This document shows positions 1 through 16,717 of a stretch of DNA of 64,000 nt, piece by piece. The position numbers and the translations under genes were made by a program. Numbering within the stretch: position 1 is the stretch's first letter; each line of letters starts with the position of its first letter. The notes under the pieces were generated by a model. It saw only the letters and a list, made by a program, of their open reading frames with translations, was not told the origin of the DNA and searched no databases. This DNA is from Thermoanaerobaculia bacterium (GTDB lineage: Bacteria > Acidobacteriota > Thermoanaerobaculia > Multivoradales > Multivoraceae): the NCBI GenBank assembly GCA_963664405.1, contig OY761158.1, positions 6,112,001 to 6,176,000 of the forward strand. The letters are read 5' to 3'.

Positions 1-666
1 ATTCAGCGGCGCGTGCACGGAGACATAGTCGGATCGCTCCAACAGCTCACCGAGACCCACCGGCTCGACTCCGGCCTCGGTCATCTTGAGCTCGGAAACG
101 TAGGGGTCGTAGGCGATGATGTGAAAGCCGAAAGGCTTCGCTCTCTTCGCCACCGCGCGCGCGACGTTGCCGAAAGAGACGAGCCCGAGGGTGCGCCCCC
201 ACAATCGTGGTATGTCCACGAAAGCCGGGCGGCCGTTAGCCCACGCACCCTCTCTCACCATGCGATCCATGACGTTCAATCGGCGGGCGGAAGCGAGAAT
301 GAGCGCCATGGCATGATCGGCCACTTCCTCGATGAAGACGTCAGGCACGTTGGTGACGACGATGCCCGCCTTGGTCGCGGCGGGGACCTCGACCGTATCG
401 GTGCCGACGCTACCGCAGCCGATGACCACGCAGCCATCGAGATTCTCGATGATGCGAGCATCGATGAAGCGCCAACGCGCGATGACGGCATCTGCGTCCG
501 TGGCCTCGGCGATGAAGTCCTCGATGCTCTCCGCTTCGACCTGCACGATCTCGGCGCCGATGGGGTCCAGGGCCTCGCGCTCGAGTGCGTAGCTCTCGTC
601 TCCCATGTCGAAGCTCGGCCCTCGGGGCGCCTGTACCACAATCTTGTGCTTTCGCTCGGCGTTCAA
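1..666 (-). CDS. CtBP-like D-2-hydroxyacid dehydrogenase (3' end beyond window)
   Basis: Missing from the ORF track. Manual minus-strand translation from TTG (666, GAGGAG upstream): LNAERKHKIVVQAP...GCGSVGTDTV...GIVVTNVPDVFIEEVADHAM...SVHAPLN. Closely parallels the 20372-21433 protein. Confidence 0.85.
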   Translation of the reverse strand, partial: MNAERKHKIVVQAPRGPSFDMGDESYALEREALDPIGAEIVQVEAESIEDFIAEATDADAVIARWRFIDARIIENLDGCVVIGCGSVGTDTVEVPAATKAGIVVTNVPDVFIEEVADHAMALILASARRLNVMDRMVREGAWANGRPAFVDIPRLWGRTLGLVSFGNVARAVAKRAKPFGFHIIAYDPYVSELKMTEAGVEPVGLGELLERSDYVSVHAPLN

Positions 667-963
667 TTCTTCGCTCCTCTCCTCGTTGGCAACCCAGCCT
701 CTGCCGGGCTCCCCAGTATTCCACAGACGGCGGCTCTTGCCACGACTGTCTACGCGTGACGTCGGCGAGATCGCTCTCCGCCTCGTCGACCGGTGCGATA
801 TGATCGATGGCGCCGTAAGAAAAACGCTTGTATCTTGTTTCCGGCCCTCTTCGATTGCGAAGCGGATCTTCTGGAGTATGAGAATGTTGCCGCCAGCAAG
901 CCGGGAGAGGTCGCGCGGCTCGAGAAGCTTCTTGTAAGTGCCTGAAGGAGGGCTGGTTCCTTT

Positions 964-3519
964 ATGAGATCGAGAATCATTCTGCTCGTGTCGCTTCTCT
1001 TCTCGTCGCCGCTGCTCGGCTACGACTTGCCCGCCGAGCTGCGTCAGCGTGTCGATCGTTTGGTGGCGGGGGTCGAAGCCTCGCCGACCACTGCCAATAA
1101 CGCCGTCGAGCGCATGGGCGTGCTCTGGGAGTGGGCTAACGAGGTGTCGGTGCAGGGAGGCTTCGTGCCGCAGAACCTATCTCTCGCCGCACTGTCCATT
1201 CTGCAGGCTCCCGACTATCGCGACCCCGCCAACCCGAGCTTCGGAGCCGATCAGATCGCGGCGGTCGACAACTATACCCGTCATCTTGCCATTCTCGACG
1301 AGGAGCCGAACGCACTGGGAACGGTCTCGATCGAACCTGCTTCAGTCGAGGCGGACACTTTGCAGACGATCCGAGTCACTTGGCGGGTCGGTAGCGCCGG
1401 CGTGGCGGAGGGGGGCGCTCTGATGGTCGCCAGAGGGCGCGCTGGCGGCTACGGCCGCATCCAGACCGAGAATCCGGCGGGCGATAACTACGTCTCGGTG
1501 AGCAGTGGCAATGGGGCAGTGCGTTTCGAGCGCGACGGAGAGGCGCCGGCCTGGGGCCCTTCGATCATCGCGGCCGGGGAGACATTCCCTCTGTTTCGGG
1601 TCCGAGGTGGAGCGTTGAATGAGGGCGATGAGGTTACCGTCGTCTACGGCGACCGCTCGGGCGGAAGCAAGGGCTTCAAGATCGGCATCTTCTCGAACGA
1701 CGCCATAACTCTGCCACTGCAAGTCGATCCCGGCGACGGGAGCTTCTTCTCGGTACCGGTCGCGAGCTTCCGAGTCGTTGGCGGCGAAGCATTCGGAGTC
1801 CATGGTTTCGCACCTTCGATCGTCGCCACCCGCGAGCGCTTCACCATCTCGGTGCGCAGCGAGGACCGCTACTACAACCGAGCGACGGGGGCGATTCCCG
1901 CCTACGAGGTCTATGTCAACGGCGAGCGTGACGGCGAGCTGCCGGCCGGCCAAGCGCTGCACGATCTGCCGATGCGTTTCGCCAAACCCGGCGTCTACCG
2001 CATCTCTCTGCGTAGCTCGGACGGCGCGATCGCGGGAACCGCCAACCCGGTCTGGGTGCAGAAAGAGCCGACGACGCGCCTCTACTGGGGCGAGACCCAC
2101 GGCCACTGCGGTTTCGCCGAGGGGCAGGGGACACCCGAAGGCTACTTCGGCTTCGCCCGTGATGACGCCAAGCTCGATTTCGTCACCCTTACCGAGCACG
2201 ACATCTGGCTGACCGATGGCGAATGGAAGTACCTCAACGAGGTCGCTGCCGAGTTTCATCGCGAGGGAGAGCTGATCGTCTACCCCGGCTACGAGTGGTC
2301 GATGCGTCGGCAGTGGGGTGGGCATCACAACGTCTTTTTCCGCCGCCCGGGCTTCGAGCGCGTGTCGAGCCATGAAGCACCCGTCCTGACTATGTTGTAT
2401 CGGGGGCTACGCGAAAAGCACGATCCCGCCGATGTTCTGATCATCCCCCATGCCCACCAGAATGGCGACTGGCGCCTCAACGACTTCGAGATGGAGCGCC
2501 TGATCGAAGTGATGTCGGGACACGGCACTTTCGAGTGGTTCGGGCAGCGCTATCTGGAGAGCGGCTTCCGGGTCGGCTTCGTCGGCGCCTCCGACGACCA
2601 TCGCGGCCACCCGGGGTACTCGCCCGGGCATCCGTCGACCGAGGGCCGGCGCTCCGGCATCTTCCAGTTCGGCGGCCTGGCCGCGGTCTGGGCACGAAAC
2701 AAGAGCACCGACACTGTCTTCGACGCCCTGAAGGCGCGCAGCGCCTACGGCGTTACCGGCGCACAGCGCATCATTCTCGACGCTCGCCTCAATGGCAGTG
2801 GAATGGGGCGCGAGCTCGAGCCCTCGGAGACTCGGGAGATTGAGGGTCGGGTCATCGGTACCGGGCCGATTCGTGCCATCGAGCTGATCAAGAACAGCAA
2901 GGTGGCGGCGAGCTTCGATCCCGGTGGAGGAGAGGCGGCGAGTGGGGAAGTCGTGGTCGGCTTCGTCTCCGAGTCCTACATCTCGAGGCCGAACCGCGAC
3001 AATCCGCGCGGCCATCGCACCTGGCGGGGCTCTCTGGAGGTCGAGAATGGGGAGGTGGTGAGTGTGCGTTACCTCGGTACGCCGCACCTCGACGCCGACC
3101 GGCTCGAAATCCAAGATGGCAGAGTGCTCTTCGACGTTGCCACACGGGGATCGCGTCGCTCCATCGCCCTGACTCTCGAGGGCGCTTCGCCCTCGCCTCG
3201 TCTCAGCTTCGAGCTCGAGGAGGGCCGCGAGCGGGGGACAGCGCCCACCCAGATCCGGACTCCTCAGCAGTTTGCGGCAGCCCGCTTCACCCTGTCGGTA
3301 CCGACGGCCGGCGATGCGGCCAACGAGGAGGTGCTCCGGACCGGGCGCTATCGCGACCGGGTCACGGTCGAGCGGGCCGCGGGCCTGCGGGACGATGTTC
3401 AGTTTCACTTCTCGGATCGCGGCGAACCGGGAGACTGGTATTACGTGCGGGTCGAGCAGCTCGACGGCCATCTGGCCTGGTCGAGCCCGTGGTGGGTCGG
3501 CGGTGAGCCGCCTCGTTGA
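964..3519 (+). CDS. Secreted DUF3604/PHP-like metallohydrolase (long subtype)
   Basis: Signal peptide; YWGETHGH, LTEHD, GYEWS, GHHNV, IPHAH, ASDDHRGHPG motifs; C-terminal YYVRVEQ..AWSSP. Confidence 0.75.
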   Translation: MRSRIILLVSLLFSSPLLGYDLPAELRQRVDRLVAGVEASPTTANNAVERMGVLWEWANEVSVQGGFVPQNLSLAALSILQAPDYRDPANPSFGADQIAAVDNYTRHLAILDEEPNALGTVSIEPASVEADTLQTIRVTWRVGSAGVAEGGALMVARGRAGGYGRIQTENPAGDNYVSVSSGNGAVRFERDGEAPAWGPSIIAAGETFPLFRVRGGALNEGDEVTVVYGDRSGGSKGFKIGIFSNDAITLPLQVDPGDGSFFSVPVASFRVVGGEAFGVHGFAPSIVATRERFTISVRSEDRYYNRATGAIPAYEVYVNGERDGELPAGQALHDLPMRFAKPGVYRISLRSSDGAIAGTANPVWVQKEPTTRLYWGETHGHCGFAEGQGTPEGYFGFARDDAKLDFVTLTEHDIWLTDGEWKYLNEVAAEFHREGELIVYPGYEWSMRRQWGGHHNVFFRRPGFERVSSHEAPVLTMLYRGLREKHDPADVLIIPHAHQNGDWRLNDFEMERLIEVMSGHGTFEWFGQRYLESGFRVGFVGASDDHRGHPGYSPGHPSTEGRRSGIFQFGGLAAVWARNKSTDTVFDALKARSAYGVTGAQRIILDARLNGSGMGRELEPSETREIEGRVIGTGPIRAIELIKNSKVAASFDPGGGEAASGEVVVGFVSESYISRPNRDNPRGHRTWRGSLEVENGEVVSVRYLGTPHLDADRLEIQDGRVLFDVATRGSRRSIALTLEGASPSPRLSFELEEGRERGTAPTQIRTPQQFAAARFTLSVPTAGDAANEEVLRTGRYRDRVTVERAAGLRDDVQFHFSDRGEPGDWYYVRVEQLDGHLAWSSPWWVGGEPPR

Positions 3520-3578: not shown

Positions 3579-5069
3579 ATGCAGGACTTTTGTTTTCGGT
3601 CATCGGTCTTCACGGCGGCGTTGCTGGTTCTCCTTCTCGGCTGCGGTGCGCCCGAGCCCGAGGCGCCGACGAGCGTGGAGCCCTCGCAGAAGAATGTACT
3701 TTTCATCGTGCTCGACGACTTCAACGTCGCCCTCGGCACCTACGCCCATTCGACGGCGAAAACCCCGAATATGGACCGCCTCGCCGCTCAAGGCGTGCGC
3801 TTCGATCGCGCCTACTCTCAGGATCCTGTTTGTAATCCGTCCCGGAGCTCGTTTCTGAGTGGCCGCCGCCCCGCCACCACCCAGGTCTACGGCAACTTCA
3901 CCGGGCCGCGCCACGTGATGGGAGACGTGGTGATGCTGCCCGAGCACTTTGCCGCTCAGGGCTATTTCACCGCCCGCGTTGGCAAGATCGCTCACGGCCG
4001 CTACGAAGGCCAGGTGAGCTGGGATATCTCCGAGAACGCGATCAGGCGCGAGCACTATCTGCCGGGGGTCGACCATGCGACCGTCCACGACAACACCTGG
4101 CCCGAGGACGCTCCCAGGGGCCTGTCGCGCGAGGACGCATTCGCGGGAACCGGCCGTAGCGGTGGGCTGCCGCTGACCTGGCGAGCCACCGACGAGCTCG
4201 AAGAAGAAACCCCCGACGGCAAGACCGCGCGCCGCATCGTCGAGCTCTTACGCGAGCACAAAGACGAGCCGTTCTTTATCGCCGCCGGCTTTCACAAACC
4301 CCATCAGCCCTGGGTGGCCCCGGCCAGCTTTTTCGAGCAGCATCCGGTGGAAGAGATCGTGTGGCCCCATACACCGGAAGACGACCTCGACGACATCCCG
4401 GCTCCAGCGCTAGGCAACTATCCTGACGACAAGGAGCACAGCAGGCTGCAGGAGCGTCAGGCGATCGCGGCCTACCACGCGACAGTGACGCTAGTCGACA
4501 ATCAGGTCGGCCTACTGCTTGACACTCTGCAAGAGCTCGGTCTGGAGGAATCGACCATCGTCATGCTAGTCAGCGATCACGGCTTCCATCTCGGCGAGCA
4601 CGGAGGCCTGTGGCGCAAACACACCCAGTTCGAAGAATCGACACGGGTACCCCTGATCGTCCGGTCGCCGGGCCACGCGTCCGGCGCCACGACTCAGGGC
4701 CTGGTCGAGCTGGTCGATCTCTACCCGACCCTGGCCGACCTCTGCGACCTCCCTCTCCCCGCCGGCCTCGAAGGCAAGAGCTTTCGGCCGCTGCTCGAAG
4801 ATCCCAGCCGCAGCTGGAAGACCGCGGTCTTCTCCGGCGCGCAGCGACATGGCTTTCACGGCCGGACCGTGCGTACCACTCGCCACCGCTACACCGAATG
4901 GACTCCGCTCGAAGGCGATGGAGAGGTGCTACTGGAGCTCTACGACCTCGAGGTCGACCCGCACGAGTTCAAGAACCTCGCCTCTTTGGCTGAGCACCTA
5001 GAGCTGAGAGACGATCTCGCGCGTCAGCTCGCGGCCGATTGGCAGGCGGTGGCGCCGACGGCGCGTTGA
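3579..5069 (+). CDS. Sulfatase, iduronate-2-sulfatase-like, lipoprotein
   Basis: CNPSR formylglycine motif, VLDD, GKIAH, FHKPH, SDHG; lipobox LLGC. Confidence 0.9.
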   Translation: MQDFCFRSSVFTAALLVLLLGCGAPEPEAPTSVEPSQKNVLFIVLDDFNVALGTYAHSTAKTPNMDRLAAQGVRFDRAYSQDPVCNPSRSSFLSGRRPATTQVYGNFTGPRHVMGDVVMLPEHFAAQGYFTARVGKIAHGRYEGQVSWDISENAIRREHYLPGVDHATVHDNTWPEDAPRGLSREDAFAGTGRSGGLPLTWRATDELEEETPDGKTARRIVELLREHKDEPFFIAAGFHKPHQPWVAPASFFEQHPVEEIVWPHTPEDDLDDIPAPALGNYPDDKEHSRLQERQAIAAYHATVTLVDNQVGLLLDTLQELGLEESTIVMLVSDHGFHLGEHGGLWRKHTQFEESTRVPLIVRSPGHASGATTQGLVELVDLYPTLADLCDLPLPAGLEGKSFRPLLEDPSRSWKTAVFSGAQRHGFHGRTVRTTRHRYTEWTPLEGDGEVLLELYDLEVDPHEFKNLASLAEHLELRDDLARQLAADWQAVAPTAR

Positions 5070-7990: not shown

Positions 7991-8887
7991 GTGAGGGCTG
8001 GTCATCAGGTGGTTATGACTCTTCAGCGGACGTTGCTGGTCACCCTCCTTTCGCTGGCCGGCTCTGCATCTGTCTGGGCTGAGTGCGGCGAGGCCGGCGT
8101 CGCGGTCCAGATACTAGGGTCGGGCGGCCCGACCGGGTCGAGTCGCGCGTCGGCCGGATACATTGTCTGGATCGACGGAGTCAGCCGCATTATGGTGGAC
8201 GCCGGCGGCGGCACCTTCGCGCATTTTCATGAGTCGGGTGCGAAGGTCGATGACCTGCAACTGCTCGCGCTGAGCCATTTTCATCCCGATCACTCTGCTG
8301 AAGTGCCGGCGATTTTGTGGCCGCGAGGTGGCAACCTGCGCGTCTCAGGCCCGTCTGGGAGCGCGGGATTCCCCTCGCTAGGCGAATTCCTCGACGGCTT
8401 GTTTGGCGCGAATGGCGTATTCCGAGTGTTGAATAGCCGTGCGAGCTTCGACCCGGTAACGGTAGACGCGGCAGTGCGAGCTCCGGTGGAAGTGCTTGCC
8501 GACGAAGAAGTGCGGGTCTCGGCTATCGGCGTGCCGCACGGTTCGGTTCCTGCACTGGCATATCGAGTCGAGGTCGGTGGCTCGAGTGTCGTCTTCAGCA
8601 GTGACCAGAATGGCTCGGATCCGGCGTTTGTGAAGTTCAGTCGCGGCGCGGACGTCTTGATCGTTCATTTCGCCGGTTCGGAAGAAGGCGGCCGAGCGCA
8701 GAGCCGGAATCTGCACGCCAAACCGAGCGTTTGGGGACAGATTGCGACCGATGCCGAGGTCGGCACTCTAGTTCTCAGCCACATCTCTTCGAATCAGGAT
8801 TTCGATGCGAACCTGGCGCATCTGAAGTCACGCTATAGCGGACCACTCGTGGTGGCTGAAGATCTGATCTGCGTAGCTGTCGACTAG
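7991..8887 (+). CDS. MBL-fold metallohydrolase (RNase Z/arylsulfatase-like), secreted
   Basis: LGSGGP, MVDAGGG, SHFHPDH, VPHG, LSH motifs. Start may be the ATG at 8015. Confidence 0.8.
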   Translation: MRAGHQVVMTLQRTLLVTLLSLAGSASVWAECGEAGVAVQILGSGGPTGSSRASAGYIVWIDGVSRIMVDAGGGTFAHFHESGAKVDDLQLLALSHFHPDHSAEVPAILWPRGGNLRVSGPSGSAGFPSLGEFLDGLFGANGVFRVLNSRASFDPVTVDAAVRAPVEVLADEEVRVSAIGVPHGSVPALAYRVEVGGSSVVFSSDQNGSDPAFVKFSRGADVLIVHFAGSEEGGRAQSRNLHAKPSVWGQIATDAEVGTLVLSHISSNQDFDANLAHLKSRYSGPLVVAEDLICVAVD

Positions 8888-9041
8888 GGCTGGCCGCCCA
8901 GGGCACCCCACCTCACCGCGTGCTCGTCACTCCGCTCCTCGCCGTACGCAGAGTACGGCTGCGTCGCCTCGTTCCTGCGCTGCGGCGATCTGGGGCACCC
9001 TGAACGCCCAGCACGGGTTGATGCGAGAAACGCTGGTCTAG
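8884..9041 (-). repeat. CTAG-bounded hairpin element, copy 1 (degenerate left arm)
   Basis: Minus-strand core GACGCAG-CCGTAC-tctgc-GTACGG-CGAGGA; inner inverted repeat with G.T pairs on the minus strand; right end GAAACGCTGGTCTAG identical to the end of the 19945-20110 copy. Confidence 0.7.
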
Positions 9042-9193
9042 TACATGCGTTGCCTTGGTTTGAAACTAGAGGTTTGACCCGTACTCTCGAATTTACATTT
9101 CTGACGTGAGCTTTTCACCCTCTTGACGACTTCGAAGTCGGGGCTCCATACACTTCGAAAGCGCAGTGTTTTACACCTGAAAAGGAGAACAAT

Positions 9194-9415
9194 ATGTCTG
9201 GAGAAACTCGGAACCATCTGGAGCATGTGCTCGAGAACGTCAAGACCAGCCGTCGTGAGGCTCTAAAGCGCCTGCTCGTCGGTGGTGGTGTCTTGGCGGT
9301 TCTACCCCCCGTATCGGTCGCGCTGGCCCAGGGCGGAGGCCGGGGCAAGGGCGAGGGCGGAGGCCGGGGCCGGGGCAAGGGCGAGGGACCAGGCACAGAA
9401 ACAGGAACAGAGTGA
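9194..9415 (+). CDS. Putative RiPP precursor / twin-arginine peptide with Gly-Arg-Lys repeat core
   Basis: Strong RBS AAAGGAG; SRREALK, hydrophobic stretch, ALA-Q; core GGGRGKGE-GGGRGRGKGE; stop overlaps next start (GTGA). Confidence 0.75.
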   Translation: MSGETRNHLEHVLENVKTSRREALKRLLVGGGVLAVLPPVSVALAQGGGRGKGEGGGRGRGKGEGPGTETGTE

Positions 9416-10581
9416 AACTCCTCCTCGTCAAACCTTCAGCGCTGGTGGCGCCGGTGGGAGACGGCTACGTCGTCTACGATGTCGAGGAGGATCAGCTACA
9501 CCACTTGAATCCTTCGGCAGCCCTGATCGTGGAGTTGTGTGACGGCTCCCGTCATCTCGACCAGATCAGGGCTGCTCTCCTCCCTCTGCTCGGCGAGTCC
9601 GGATGGGAGGATTGCGTTCGCTGGATCGACGAGGCGGAGAGGACTGGCCTACTGGTGAGCGGGCCTCCCGCTGGGCTCGGTGGCGCCGAGGTCTCCGCCA
9701 ACCGACTCGTCGAGCTTGCGGATCGCCTTCGTAGCGATGACCGAGTACTCGCGGCGTTCGTTTGCCAGACGCACGCCGCCGAGCTGGCTCCCGACGAGCC
9801 GCTGATGTGGTGTCGACTCGGTGAGCTCGCTCACATCGTCGGTCGCAGAGCCGAGGCGCGCGAAGCGTACGAGCGCTACTTCGAAAGACATCCTGAGGAC
9901 GCGGAGGTCGAGCACATTCTGGTGGCACTCCGCGATGATGCGCCACCGGCGCGAGCTTCCGATCAGTTCATCGAGCAGCTCTATTCGCGCTTCGCATCTT
10001 TCTACGACACCAACATGTGCGACGAGCTCGAGTATCGGGCCCCTCGCCGGCTGTTCGAGGTCGTTTCTCCGACTCTGGCGGGTCGCGATCAGCTCGACGT
10101 GCTGGATCTCGGTTGTGGCACGGGGCTGAACGGCGAGCTGCTTCGCGCTCATGCGCGGCGACTGATTGGTATCGACCTTTCGCCGCAGATGATCGAGCGG
10201 GCTCAGGAGAGAGCGGTCTACGACGAGCTGCATCAGGCAGAGATCACGGCCTGGCTGGAGGGCTGTGCCGCGCGCTACGACCTGATTGCCGCCTGCGACA
10301 CGCTGATCTACTTCGGCGACTTACGCCAGGTGGTGCTGCCGGCGGCACGCAGGCTGAGTGCGAACGGAACGATCGCTTTTACCGTCGAGCGGGGCGACAA
10401 CGCCCCGTTTCAGCTCGGCGACTCGGGGCGCTTCACCCACCACCCCGATCATCTGCGTGCCGTGGCGGCCGAGACTGGACTGTCGGTAGTGGGAATCGAG
10501 GAGACCGTGCTGCGCTCAGAGTACGGCGATCCCGTGGAAGGGCTGGTTGCCGTGTTCTCTACTGACTCGGTCCCTCCCTAG
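9412..10581 (+). CDS. PqqD/RRE - TPR - class I SAM methyltransferase fusion (COG4976-like)
   Basis: N-terminal GYVVYD..HHLNPSAALIVELCDG (PqqD/RRE pattern); TPR-like helices; VLDLGCGTG motif I; DLIAACDTLIYFGDL; SGRFTH. Confidence 0.85.
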   Translation: MKLLLVKPSALVAPVGDGYVVYDVEEDQLHHLNPSAALIVELCDGSRHLDQIRAALLPLLGESGWEDCVRWIDEAERTGLLVSGPPAGLGGAEVSANRLVELADRLRSDDRVLAAFVCQTHAAELAPDEPLMWCRLGELAHIVGRRAEAREAYERYFERHPEDAEVEHILVALRDDAPPARASDQFIEQLYSRFASFYDTNMCDELEYRAPRRLFEVVSPTLAGRDQLDVLDLGCGTGLNGELLRAHARRLIGIDLSPQMIERAQERAVYDELHQAEITAWLEGCAARYDLIAACDTLIYFGDLRQVVLPAARRLSANGTIAFTVERGDNAPFQLGDSGRFTHHPDHLRAVAAETGLSVVGIEETVLRSEYGDPVEGLVAVFSTDSVPP

Positions 10582-10734
10582 TCGTCGGCGACTTTGCCTA
10601 CCACCTGACCCAACATCTCTTCAACACCGAGGAGCGTCTGTTCGCCGATCCCGACGGCACCATCCGAGCGCGTTGCCGACTTGGCCGGAGTCGACTTTCG
10701 ACGTGTGCGCTTATGGATCTTTGCCCGTACTGCT
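10581..10734 (+). pseudogene. C-terminal remnant of APH(6)/hydroxyurea-resistance-type kinase
   Basis: VVGDFAYHLTQHLFNTEERLFADPDGTIR, frameshift, RVADLAGVDFRRVRLWIFARTA; no start or N-terminus. Confidence 0.6.
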
Positions 10735-10798
10735 GTCACGCCTCCAGACGGGAGAGGGATGCGGTCCCCGCCTTCTTGCGATCGATCGCGCCGCACTG

Positions 10799-10966
10799 AA
10801 AGTGGACCGTAACACTCGAACGTTTAGTGGCTGAGTGAGTCATTCGTGGTCGAGATCAAGGCGCGCTGACGCAGGCATATCGGGGACTATGTCGAGGAAG
10901 CGTAACGCAGAGATCGGCCGCGAGGGCCGCTCAGGCGCTAAACGTTTGGGTGTTACGGCCCACTAG
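10799..10966 (+). repeat. Hairpin element, copy 2 (right end CTAG, left end degenerate AAAG)
   Basis: Arms AGTGGACCGTAACACTCGAACGTTTAG / CTAAACGTTTGGGTGTTACGGCCCACTAG; core GGCGCGCTGACGCAGGCATAT..ATGTCGAGGA shared with copy 3. Confidence 0.8.
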
Positions 10967-11036
10967 ATCGAAGGAGACTGCTCGAGGGCGCCTGGAGGCG
11001 GGATACCATCGCCAGGCGCGGAAGGAGAATCTCCTT

Positions 11037-12563
11037 ATGTTGATTCGAGTCATCGCCCTCCTCTTCCCTTCGCTGTTGATGGTTGTTGCTGGCTTCGCCC
11101 AGGATCGGGCGCGCCCGAACATCCTCTTCATCTTTTCGGACGACCACGCCTATCAGGCGATCAGCGCCTACGGCTCGCGGATCAACCACACCCCGAATAT
11201 CGATCGCCTTGCCCGGGAGGGGATGAGGTTCGAGAACGCCCTGGTCACCAACTCGATCTGCGCGCCGAGTCGGGCGGTGATCCTCAGCGGCAAGTACAGC
11301 CACCTCAACGGTGTTCTCGACAACGTCCTGGCCTTCGACGGCTCGCAGCAGACCTTCCCGAAGCTGCTTCAGCAGGCCGGGTATCAGACCGCGATGATCG
11401 GCAAGTGGCATCTCAAGAGCGATCCGACCGGGTTCGATCATTGGGAGGTGCTGCCCGGGCAGGGCTCCTACTACAACCCCGACATGCGCATCGAGGGAGG
11501 GGAGCGGCAACATCACGGCTATGTGACCGACATCATCACCGATCTGACCTTGGAGTGGCTCGAGGAGAAGCGTGACGACGATCGGCCGTTCATGGTGATG
11601 ACCCAGCACAAAGCCCCGCATCGCAACTGGATGCCGGGTCCAGAGCATCTGACGCTCTACGACGGGGTGACGCTGTGGGAGCCGCCGACGCTCTTCGACG
11701 ACTATGCCAACCGTGCGAGCCCGGCACGTCTCCAGGAAATGGAGATCGGGCGTCACATGAGGGATTGGCACGACCTGAAAATCAAGCCGCCAGCCGATAC
11801 TCCCGAGAGCGATCTCCTACTACGAAGGTGGCTTCTGACCTACGGTCGCCTCGACGAGGGGCAGCGATTGGTTTGGGATGCCATCTACGAGCCCAAGAAC
11901 GCTGCGTTCGCGGCGGCCAATCTCAAGGGGCGCGAGCTGGTGCGCTGGAAGTACCAGCGCTACATCAAGGATTACCTGCGCACCATCGCTTCCATCGACG
12001 ACAATGTCGGGAGACTTCTGCGCTACCTCGATGCGACCGGCCTGGCGGAGAACACCGTCGTCATCTACAGCTCCGACCAGGGTTTCTACCTGGGGGAGCA
12101 CGGCTGGTTCGATAAACGGTGGATGTATGAAGAGTCACTCAAGACTCCACTCCTCGTGCGCTGGCCCGGCGTGGTGGCAGGGGGAAGCGTCAACACCGAC
12201 ATGGTCTCCAACCTGGATTACGCCGAGACTTTCCTGGAGATCGCGGGCGTCGAGGCTCCCGATGCGATGCAGGGCCGGAGCCTGGTGCCACTACTCGCCG
12301 GCAGCACTCCCGGCGATTGGCGGCAGAGCTTCTACTACCACTACTACGAGAAGGGGGTGCACAACGTGGCGCCCCACGAAGGCCTGCGGACCCCGACCCA
12401 CAAGCTGATCTCCTACTACGAGACCGGAGAGTGGGAGCTCTTTGATTTGGAAGCCGACCCTCACGAGCTGCGAAGTGTGTATGGTGCGAAAGGTTACCGG
12501 CGGCTTCAGAGTGAGCTACTGGAGGAGATGGAACGGCTGCGGCGTGAGTTGGGCGTGCCCTGA
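11037..12563 (+). CDS. Sulfatase (N-acetylglucosamine-6-sulfatase-like)
   Basis: CAPSR, FSDDH, GKWHL, HKAPH, SDQG. Start moved to ATG 11037 (signal peptide, AAGGAG upstream). Confidence 0.9.
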
Positions 12564-15353: not shown

Positions 15354-16717
15354 GGATGTGTCCCGTTTTTTGTGGAAATGGGTTCAGGCGTAGTCCTCCG
15401 AGTCGTCTTTTGCTAAATCCTACCGTTTACGCGGCCCTCTCAACCTCGAGCAGGAGCTGAAGCGCCCGGTAGCCGTTAATCCTTCGCAGGTGTATCTGCC
15501 CGAAGGCGACGAGCCCCCAGAGGAGCGTGACGCCGGCAGCCTCGGTGGCAAAGGAGCCCTGGGTTTTAGTGCGGCGACGAAACTCGCGGTTCAGGTTCTC
15601 CAGAGCGTTGGTCGTGCGCACCGAACTCCACAGCGATTTGGGGAGCTCGTAGAAGGTCAGTAGCTGGAACCCTGCCTCCTCAAGGCTGCGAGCCACCGCC
15701 GGGACTAGTCGCGACCACTTGGTGATGAACGCCGCGTAGGCCTTGCGGGCCTGTGCCGCGTCCTCGGCTCGTACGATCGAGTGCCAGTCACGCCGCAGCT
15801 CGTCGTGTGCGTGCACCGGGCAGTGTTTCTTCAGATTCTCCCACTTGTGTTGGACGCAGCGCTGGACTTTGACCTCAGGCCAAGCCTTCAGCGCCGCGGC
15901 CAGCCCTTTGTGGCCATCCGTGACCAGGTAGCGCGGAGCCTGAAGACCTCGGGCCTTCAGATCCTCGATCAGCCACTTCCAGTGCTCGGCGGCCTCGCTC
16001 GCGGCTAAACGTAAGGCCACCAGCACCTTGGTGCCGCCCGGAGTCACACCCAGCACCACCAGCACCGGTACCGAGACCACTCGACGGGCCAAGCGGACCT
16101 TCAGGTGAAAGCCATCGAGAAACAGAAGCACGTAGGACTCCTCCGACAGATCGCGCTCACTCCAGCGAGCAAAAAGCTCCTTCAGCCGAGACACCACACG
16201 CGAAACTGCGCTCTTGGACAGGTGCTCCTCACCCAGCAGCGGAGCCAATGCCTTCTTGATCCGGCGGCTGTTAGCGCCAGCCAGATACGCACCCAGGATC
16301 GCGTCATCGACCTCCTGCGTACGACGAGCGTAACGCGGCACGATCGCACTGCGAAACTCTACGCTGGCCCCATCCTCGCCGACTAGCCGTCCTCGTGGAA
16401 TGTCCAGTTCCTTCGACCCACACGCCGTCGTGATCAGACGACGCTGCTTGCCGTTGCGATAGCCCGCACGCTCGCCTGAACGCTCGTAGGCGCTGCAGCC
16501 CAGCGCCTCGGACAGCTCTTCCTCGAGTGTGATCTCGATCGCCGCACGAACACGCTCGCGTAACAACGAACGAATGTCCTGACGGAAGCGTGCAGCTTCC
16601 CCTTCCTCGTTGATATTCTCCACCATGGCGTAATCCTCCGTTCGCCCTAACCGGCGATGTGTTTGACCACTAGGAGGTTACGCCATTCTCAATTTCCACA
16701 GCATTCGGGACGGATCC
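15354..16717 (-). mobile_element. IS256-family insertion sequence, 1364 bp, 8-bp TSD TGAAGCCC
   Basis: Imperfect TIRs GGATGTGTCCCG..TGTGGAAAT..GGCGTA and GGATCCGTCCCG..TGTGGAAAT..GGCGTA; TSD at 15346-15353 and 16718-16725. Confidence 0.95.
15427..16626 (-). CDS. IS256-family (Mutator-like) transposase
   Basis: YRNG, LSKSAVSR, LFLDG, VTDG, QRCVQHK, RTTNALENLNREFRRRTK. Confidence 0.95.
   Translation of the reverse strand: MVENINEEGEAARFRQDIRSLLRERVRAAIEITLEEELSEALGCSAYERSGERAGYRNGKQRRLITTACGSKELDIPRGRLVGEDGASVEFRSAIVPRYARRTQEVDDAILGAYLAGANSRRIKKALAPLLGEEHLSKSAVSRVVSRLKELFARWSERDLSEESYVLLFLDGFHLKVRLARRVVSVPVLVVLGVTPGGTKVLVALRLAASEAAEHWKWLIEDLKARGLQAPRYLVTDGHKGLAAALKAWPEVKVQRCVQHKWENLKKHCPVHAHDELRRDWHSIVRAEDAAQARKAYAAFITKWSRLVPAVARSLEEAGFQLLTFYELPKSLWSSVRTTNALENLNREFRRRTKTQGSFATEAAGVTLLWGLVAFGQIHLRRINGYRALQLLLEVERAA

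Follow-up and report, generated by a model that had tools for sequence, protein, structure and literature searches.

A two-gene module pairing a short peptide with a twin-arginine-type leader and an RRE-TPR-methyltransferase fusion in a Thermoanaerobaculia genome: a candidate route to methylated, exported peptides

The structurally solved recognition elements (RREs) of pathways for peptides made by ribosomes and modified post-translationally (RiPPs) bind the leader of a precursor and pass its core to a catalytic partner. Export through the twin-arginine translocation (Tat) pathway is post-translational, and chaperones that bind the signal often retain a substrate until it is mature; TorD, DmsD and NapD, which are cytoplasmic, each recognise the twin-arginine signal of a single specific substrate and keep it back until it has fully matured. 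Such proofreading chaperones have a fold different from that of the RRE, serve cofactor insertion into redox enzymes and contain no methyltransferase. In the GRRM system of cyanobacteria, a short precursor whose C-terminal part is repetitive and extremely rich in Gly is encoded beside a radical SAM/SPASM maturase; we know of no Tat signal in it. In the mycobacterial surface or exported protein HBHA, methylation at many lysines protects a low-complexity, Lys-rich tail from proteases. Bufferins and oxazolins are RiPPs modified by MNIO enzymes, and, according to the main texts of two reports, their precursors carry signal peptides of the general secretion (Sec) type, receive their modification in the cytoplasm, leave through housekeeping machinery and are trimmed by signal peptidase (PMC11626156, PMC12452194); the authors of these texts call signal-peptide precursors rare and highly unusual among bacterial RiPPs. 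Here we analyse a gene pair in a 64,000-nucleotide stretch of a Thermoanaerobaculia genome of the Acidobacteriota (GCA_963664405.1, contig OY761158.1, positions 6,112,001 to 6,176,000; hereafter the window), in which a short peptide with a Tat-type signal is encoded immediately upstream of a fusion of an RRE, tetratricopeptide repeats (TPR) and a class I methyltransferase.

The precursor gene (positions 9194..9415; all features of the pair are on the plus strand), identified from the list of open reading frames (ORFs) and by its match to a leader profile described below, starts with ATG and encodes 73 amino acids. A Shine-Dalgarno-like AAGGAG, read from the sequence at 9182..9187, lies 6 nt before the start codon. 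The enzyme gene (9412..10581, 389 aa, GTG start) is supported by the ORF list, Pfam matches, homologues and an AlphaFold2 model, and overlaps the peptide gene in the sequence GTGA, the peptide stop TGA occupying 9413-9415 and the enzyme GTG 9412-9414. The GTG at 9412 is taken as the correct start because the N-termini of homologues begin at the equivalent position. An earlier reading made from the sequence alone (the sequence-only reading) had described both ORFs, a strong ribosome-binding site and the overlap, and all of them are there. The small ORF and the fusion enzyme are a real, confirmed observation, and the pairing goes far beyond chance because the order and orientation of the two genes are the same in other phyla. 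The pair shows the hallmarks of a RiPP-type system, namely a short adjoining precursor gene, a conserved leader and a variable core.

That a short ORF with an RR motif should lie upstream of homologous fusions had been set beforehand as a check of the sequence-only reading. The search yielded 21 distinct full-length fusion loci, of which the 19 with 300 nt or more of DNA upstream were assessable; left out of the co-occurrence count were L010 (a partial match), L027-L029 (fusion cut at the contig end), L019 (6 nt upstream) and L005 (220 nt upstream), the last with a Lys/Gly-rich tail visible at the contig edge. A leader ORF on the same strand was found just upstream of the fusion in 18/19 assessable loci, as that reading had anticipated, and these ORFs share the RR motif, a hydrophobic stretch and a low-complexity tail containing Lys. 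The sole exception, L018, carries an in-frame stop inside the fusion (locus positions 1805-1807) and has no peptide. The earlier proposal of a minimal two-gene system also held, since no third gene is conserved among the 19 loci; the peptide and the enzyme form a self-contained two-gene module. Fusion genes that look damaged were also seen in a Pirellulales metagenome-assembled genome (L007/L098, in-frame TGA at locus positions 4436-4438) and in L008 (frameshifts), and in these, as in L018, the cause may be assembly error or decay.

A hidden Markov model (HMM) of the leader, built from 16 family peptides, scores its training peptides at 60-77 bits and the out-of-sample loci L096 and L097 at 43 bits, while at E<0.01 it matched 0/74 loci of TPR-methyltransferases without an RRE. 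It replaced a scan for Lys-rich windows (20 aa with at least 5 Lys; 15/21 full-length loci against 16/74 controls, in unrelated frames), which was dropped because it did not discriminate between loci and controls. Within the 6.78-Mb genome that contains the window there is one match to the leader HMM, at 73.9 bits, and the next best reaches 15.8 bits, so that the leader represents a specific family and not any Tat signal. TPR-methyltransferases without an RRE (L013-L015, L030-L095, L099-L103) are common; they match residues ~100-381 of the enzyme at 33-43% identity, and their frames are often 450-640 aa long, hence with longer N-terminal regions.

The association was also assessed reciprocally in two samples of 401 genomes each, one from the phylum of the window and one from the phylum of the Pirellulales locus. 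In the first sample the full-length fusion occurs in three genomes (G000, the window's own, G318 and G351), and matches to the whole leader profile, at 64-70 bits, occur in exactly these three, lying upstream of the fusion by a few hundred bases. The remaining leader matches in this sample score 25-28 bits, cover the generic part of the signal only and lie in open frames of 130-932 aa. The second sample gave the same picture, with the fusion in G401, G460 and G781 and strong leader matches in exactly these three genomes, just upstream. The strong matches in both samples score at least 56 bits.

Residues 1-45 of the precursor form the leader, which, judged by its match to TIGR01409 and by the family alignment, appears to be a twin-arginine export signal. 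Its N-region (residues 1-19, 9194..9250) carries a block of the form L-[DE]-x-x-L-x-x-V in the alignments, with L13 nearly invariant. Ordinary Tat signals are not, to our knowledge, marked by conservation of such a block, and we propose it as the element that the RRE would recognise. It adjoins the twin-arginine motif S-R-R-E-A-L-K (residues 19-25, 9248..9268), in which R20 and R21 are invariant in 16/16 family peptides, and a hydrophobic h-region of Gly, Ala, Val and Leu (residues 26-45, 9269..9328) that ends in A-L-A. The final residue, A45, stands directly before the core and is invariant across the leader alignments (16/16 peptides), and signal peptidase is predicted to cut after it. Mean column identity of the leader alignment is 47%. 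The NCBIfam model TIGR01409 (TAT_signal_seq) matches residues 18-43 at 20.1 bits, above its cut-off of 16.7. The 'SRR' segment to which the sequence-only reading had drawn attention is therefore present, but its nature as a twin-arginine signal had gone unrecognised. The genome encodes TatC (PF00902, 232.7 bits, G000:C1:2695857-2696489). The lack of an adjacent protease or transporter gene would be explained by the leader being a Tat signal that uses housekeeping machinery. No curated Pfam or NCBIfam family for the precursor was found among the peptides scanned. The TrAA12-like family PF22807 matched 4/16 peptides and 0/6 on re-scan, and was treated as a low-complexity artefact.

The enzyme comprises three parts. 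Its N-terminal domain (residues 1-88, 9412..9675), which had been suspected of being PqqD-like, matches PqqD (PF05402) on residues 19-57 at 29.7 bits when the whole enzyme is scanned and at 32.2 bits when residues 1-90 are isolated, against a cut-off of 23.4; all 18 of 18 homologous N-domains match the Pfam PqqD model at E<=0.01, and a profile of these 18 finds the RRE of TfuB1 (6jx3_B) by sequence (E 0.0025). The isolated domain was modelled with a mean predicted local distance difference test score (pLDDT) of 88.9. Its best match in the Protein Data Bank (PDB) by Foldseek is TbiB1 with its leader (5v1v_A, TM 0.78/0.79, rmsd 2.5 A), followed by the RRE of PbtF, LynD, TruD, TfuB1 (TM 0.75/0.78), TigE, SuiB, CteB, ThcOx and MccB. 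The domain is assigned as an RRE because of the PqqD matches, the profile match to TfuB1 and the fact that the closest structures are leader-binding RREs; by sequence and predicted fold, it belongs to the PqqD/RRE family.

The remainder of the enzyme agrees with the TPR and class I methyltransferase assignment made earlier. Five TPR-like helices (residues 96-173, 9697..9930) are evident from the secondary structure of the model, and although Pfam TPR families on residues 110-173 of the single sequence are weak and below cut-off, the family profile matches TPR proteins in the PDB with E-values down to 7.6e-20. The S-adenosylmethionine (SAM)-dependent methyltransferase domain (residues 181-389, 9952..10578), with motif I VLDLGCGTG at residues 230-238 (10099-10125), is recognised by Methyltransf_25/12/11/23/31 on residues 209-326 (40-51 bits, all above cut-offs; 47-51 for 25/12/11) and by Foldseek, which returns many class I methyltransferases at prob 1.00. 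The catalytic domain matches NodS, ToxA, UbiG, NTMT1 and a phosphatidylethanolamine N-methyltransferase (TMt 0.6-0.74), as well as ChlM, and METTL27 (7qcb) was found by the PDB profile search at 5.4e-14. A full-length AlphaFold2 model from 30 homologues (pLDDT 91.3, pTM 0.85) shows a beta-rich N-domain with helices, the five TPR-like helices and a Rossmann-type domain. NCBIfam holds no equivalog for the enzyme, all matches being far under their cut-offs; the daptide methyltransferase model NF041820 scored 20.5 bits against a cut-off of 175, which places the enzyme outside that family. The winged-helix model PF21782 of the rickettsial protein-lysine methyltransferases (PKMT) matched 2/18 N-domains, and the catalytic families of these enzymes matched none. 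Full-length Foldseek and PDB sequence searches returned nothing beyond class I methyltransferases of a generic kind and TPR proteins made by design, and thus gave no pointer to a substrate.

Enzyme and peptide are complementary in charge. The net charge of the enzyme lies between -9 and -29 in 30/30 enzymes, 24/30 of which contain no more than 5 Lys; the window enzyme has 2 Lys in 389 residues, placing it in the lowest ~2% of the long ORFs of its genome. All 16 of the 16 cores, in turn, are positively charged (+1 to +19). Structure prediction of the enzyme with the peptide gave an ipSAE of 0.58 (0.60, 0.58 and 0.57 in separate runs), the best of 3 controls reaching 0.01, a result graded as weak support; custom alignments were used, so that the calibration counts that follow apply only roughly. 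The pLDDT of the partner is at least 61 and the agreement of contacts between runs at least 53%. In the calibration, the mark was reached by 58/80 solved complexes and 2/110 mismatched pairs, and scores of up to 0.60 account for 7 of the 80 solved complexes and for both passing mismatches.

Taken together, these observations lead us to lean, with moderate confidence, towards a mechanism in which the RRE holds the Tat leader, the methyltransferase modifies the core, most likely at Lys, and Tat together with signal peptidase exports and releases the peptide. The first 45 residues of the precursor would then have two roles, as a signal for Tat export and as the leader that the enzyme recognises. 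Binding of this leader by the RRE would take place in the cytoplasm, the most likely contact being the N-region block L-[DE]-x-x-L-x-x-V beside the RR, and the RRE could act as a signal-holding chaperone for the Tat pathway. Next, the strongly acidic TPR and methyltransferase part would methylate several residues of the disordered cationic core from SAM, the acceptors most likely being lysine epsilon-amino groups. Once released, the peptide would leave via Tat and be cut by signal peptidase after the conserved Ala, so that the product, a short peptide rich in Lys and Gly and carrying methyl groups, would end up in the periplasm or outside the cell; a dedicated protease or transporter would be unnecessary. 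A bolder form of this proposal, which we advance only tentatively, is that the Tat signal itself is the RRE leader, that the enzyme is also a Tat 'proofreading' chaperone poly-methylating core lysines before release, and that horizontal transfer has carried the system to at least 3 phyla; this would amount to a new class of modification of small proteins or ribosomal peptides.

The choice of acceptor depends on the cores. In the window, the core (residues 46-73, 9329..9412) contains 14 Gly, 3 Arg, 2 Lys and 4 Glu, with a net charge of +1, and its DNA includes a tandem duplication encoding GGGRGKGE-type units (9330..9387), detected by Tandem Repeats Finder with a period of 24 (2.2 copies, 90% matches) or 30 (1.9 copies, 92%), as the sequence-only reading had seen at the DNA level. 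Across the family the cores are hypervariable and of low complexity, and their types are unrelated to one another: GRGKG, GKGG, KGD, GKGQ, KSSN, GYYGKGD, eight consecutive Lys and a Lys-rich motif with two Cys. Lys is present in 16/16 cores, at 7-40%; Arg is missing in 10/16, Asp and Glu together in 1/16 (L012) and Ser/Thr/Asn/Gln in 2/16 (L007, L025). Only Lys and Gly thus occur in all 16, and Lys is the sole universal side chain with a nucleophile. From the cores, lysine epsilon-amino groups are the most likely methyl acceptor, and the idea of RG/RGG-type arginine methylation in the sequence-only reading is unsupported, because Arg is missing in most cores while Lys is in every one. The interpretation offered there is, as a whole, partly supported.

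The alternatives that remain are all less probable, and the best placed of them keeps the module and its leader and changes only the acceptor, which might be Arg, the carboxylates of Asp/Glu or of the C-terminus (as O-methyl esters), Gln/Asn amides or backbone nitrogen. The window core itself, with Arg outnumbering Lys in an RG/RGG-like context, is compatible with this, and the acceptor is not fixed by the fold, because the structural matches include both O- and N-methyltransferases (UbiG, NodS, NTMT1). The enzymes, however, share 50-65% identity from end to end, a reason to expect a single common chemistry, and every non-Lys side chain listed is absent from at least one core. We therefore regard a non-Lys acceptor as unlikely, though worth keeping in mind.

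The second alternative holds that the RRE-like domain is an export chaperone or regulator for the Tat leader, in the manner of TorD, DmsD or NapD, with the methyltransferase acting on a different target, either a small molecule or another protein, and the peptide serving as cargo or adaptor. The structures nearest to the methyltransferase are mostly small-molecule enzymes, and the catalytic domain evidently lives independently of these peptides, because none of the 74 common RRE-less relatives adjoins one. Against this stand the fusion of the RRE to the methyltransferase and its strict pairing with the peptide, the match between acidic enzymes and cationic cores, and the lack of any other conserved gene that could supply a different substrate. 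In known systems, moreover, this is how RREs present substrates to the catalytic domain fused to them (PMC7470986). A pure export role is, on balance, quite unlikely.

Doubt may also be raised about Tat itself: the RR leader could be an RRE recognition sequence that merely resembles a Tat signal, with a product that stays in the cytoplasm, is anchored in the membrane or is exported otherwise. TIGR01409 matches only 8/16 family peptides at E<=0.01 and the Pfam TAT_signal model 1/16, the window motif has Ala at the position where the Tat consensus has Phe, and the genome contains a second small RR ORF linked to a PqqD-like gene (L003, described below). All 16 of 16 peptides, on the other hand, combine the RR, a hydrophobic stretch rich in Gly and Ala and the conserved Ala before the core; TatC is encoded in the genome, and the want of an adjacent protease or transporter fits general export machinery. 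Some leader-bearing relatives, moreover, carry BON domains, which are typical of periplasmic proteins. We give this alternative little credence. That the small ORF is a chance frame, or its adjacency without functional meaning, is extremely improbable: the DNA there is rich in GC, and several 'shadow' ORFs overlap on the two strands, but the leader is conserved as protein between Acidobacteriota and Planctomycetota loci whose core DNA is entirely different, a strong ribosome-binding site precedes the ORF, the leader recurs in 308 representative clusters (E<=1e-3), and the co-occurrence is reciprocal in both 401-genome samples.

Several observations weigh against the mechanism that we favour, Tat-leader recognition by the RRE followed by lysine methylation and export. 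The score of the predicted complex falls in a band where, by the predictor's own account, wrong calls outnumber correct ones unless the pairing was probable to begin with, and it may partly reflect likeness to known structures, because RRE-leader complexes have already been solved. For the RRE domain, Foldseek E-values are modest, 3.5e-3 at best, despite high TM-scores. The nearest likenesses of the methyltransferase domain are with N-methyltransferases and small-molecule methyltransferases of a generic kind (NodS, ToxA, UbiG, METTL27), and no established family of protein-lysine methyltransferases was matched, PrmA reaching 15.1 bits against a cut-off of 22; the acceptor atom is consequently read from core composition alone, because the enzyme fits no such family. 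Of the 16 cores, moreover, that of the window has the lowest share of Lys (2 Lys to 3 Arg in 28 residues). As to conservation, 16/18 leader matches were in the training set of the HMM, and there are closely related loci among those counted (L006/L009, L020-L023, L096/L097), so that the locus counts overstate independence. Finally, leader-bearing proteins with folded domains (BON, EF-hand) may have other partners.

In metagenomes the fusion is common: of 8000 candidates that were scored, 680 match at E<=1e-3. Leaving aside the window's own protein, the 119 matches listed have 51-65% identity over 88-100% of the query, and many homologues bear the JGI name 'predicted TPR repeat methyltransferase'. 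Named sources include members of the Planctomycetota (Pirellulales), Pseudomonadota (Micropepsaceae) and Acidobacteriota (Terracidiphilus and others). This distribution across named phyla is patchy (3/401 genomes in each sample), which suggests that the system has spread horizontally.

A search with the leader-only profile through 1.84 billion representatives found 308 proteins at E<=1e-3, 42 of them at 1e-10 or better; almost all are 40-230 aa long, with the leader at the N-terminus, while a word-based search with the window leader found only the window peptide itself. Among the best 150 of the 308, the core is 8 aa or longer in 143, and 127/143 of these cores hold at least 2 Lys. The names of 10 leader-bearing representatives are 'hypothetical protein', plus one evidently spurious name. 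Pfam finds a BON domain in P0146 (32.8 bits) and P0175 (27.9 bits; cut-off 27) and an EF-hand in P0156 (26.0 bits against a cut-off of 25.4), so that the leader family is not confined to low-complexity peptides. An EF-hand is also listed for P0216 and P0246. In such leader-bearing proteins the folded domain lies between or after Lys/Gly repeats.

The second PqqD-linked locus of the same genome lies outside the window (L003, G000:C1:5847148-5850267; minus strand, locus positions 317..2576). It comprises a GT4 glycosyltransferase (1689..2576), a stand-alone PqqD-like protein of 100 aa (1390..1692), an HprK-like P-loop kinase (524..1393) and a 55-aa ORF (317..484) with an RR motif and a hydrophobic stretch, which the leader HMM scores at 12.2 bits (E 0.053). 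None of the model matches reaches its cut-off, whether lasso_PqqD and HPr-rel-A PqqD for the PqqD-like protein or HprK_rel_A for the kinase. The small ORF may encode a further peptide with an RR leader, attended by a chaperone of the PqqD type.

Within the window, the genes flanking the pair (3579..5069, 10950..12563 on the plus strand, and neighbours) resemble, by eye, secreted sulfatases, an amidohydrolase and a protein of metallo-beta-lactamase fold, and none of these is conserved beside the pair in other loci. The translation of an ORF of 399 aa (15427..16626, minus strand) resembles, by eye only, a transposase of the Mutator/IS256 type, which could bear on the acquisition of the region. 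A promoter and terminator scan of 8700-11100 returned 0 promoter-like sites and a single terminator-like site (11022-11036), within the expectation from shuffled sequence, and is uninformative. A look for RNA runs covering 9100-10600 found none.

If the proposed mechanism is correct, RRE-guided peptide modification would be extended by a Tat-signal leader, by fusion to a methyltransferase and by secreted, multiply methylated, Lys-rich disordered peptides. Its bolder form would imply secreted low-complexity peptides rich in methyl-lysine, possibly protease-resistant polycations for adhesion, matrix or mineral binding. We know of no earlier case of a Tat signal serving as a RiPP leader. The large COG4976/TPR-methyltransferase group would gain its first candidate substrate, and the leader and RRE together could be used as a transferable tag to direct methylation and export through Tat. 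As only two genes are involved, the module is directly testable by co-expression and mass spectrometry. A full-text literature search found no description of a module of Tat-leader peptide and RRE-TPR-methyltransferase. The main text of the RRE-Finder paper does not contain the words 'methyltransferase', 'TPR' or 'tetratricopeptide', while its supplementary figures might show a related fusion, and no RRE-TPR-methyltransferase architecture is described in the one review found.

Among known systems, COG4976-type or METTL27-like enzymes have the same TPR and methyltransferase core, and differ in lacking both the RRE and the leader ORF (0/74). The maturase of the GRRM system is a radical SAM protein, whereas the window enzyme is a class I methyltransferase, and no NCBIfam model of that system matched the family peptides. 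The nearest functional analogue of the proposed product is mycobacterial HBHA, with methyl-lysine in its Lys-rich repeats (PMC8467707); HBHA is a larger protein with no Tat-leader or RRE logic, and no homology is claimed. Bufferins are alike in that, as given in the main texts of PMC11626156 and PMC12452194, a general-secretion signal replaces the classical leader and neither a dedicated protease nor a dedicated exporter is involved. They differ in their enzyme, an MNIO with a DUF2063 partner that modifies Cys, in a signal peptide that is dispensable for modification, and in using Sec, whereas the leader of the window pair is conserved, family-defining and Tat-type; the word 'Tat' is absent from the main text of both papers. 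The solved RREs of TbiB1 (5v1v), TfuB1 (6jx3), PbtF (8t19) and LynD (4v1t) have the same winged-helix fold and PqqD signature as the 88 N-terminal residues of the enzyme. Unlike the B1 proteins of lasso peptides and other RREs, that of the window is fused through TPRs to a class I methyltransferase and its putative leader is a Tat signal, and no lasso cyclase, protease, YcaO or radical SAM enzyme is conserved beside the pair. By analogy, the module would work like an RRE-dependent RiPP pathway, with an export logic resembling that of bufferins and methylation as the probable modification; what is new with respect to known RRE systems is the Tat signal, the fusion of RRE and methyltransferase, and the Lys-rich disordered cores.

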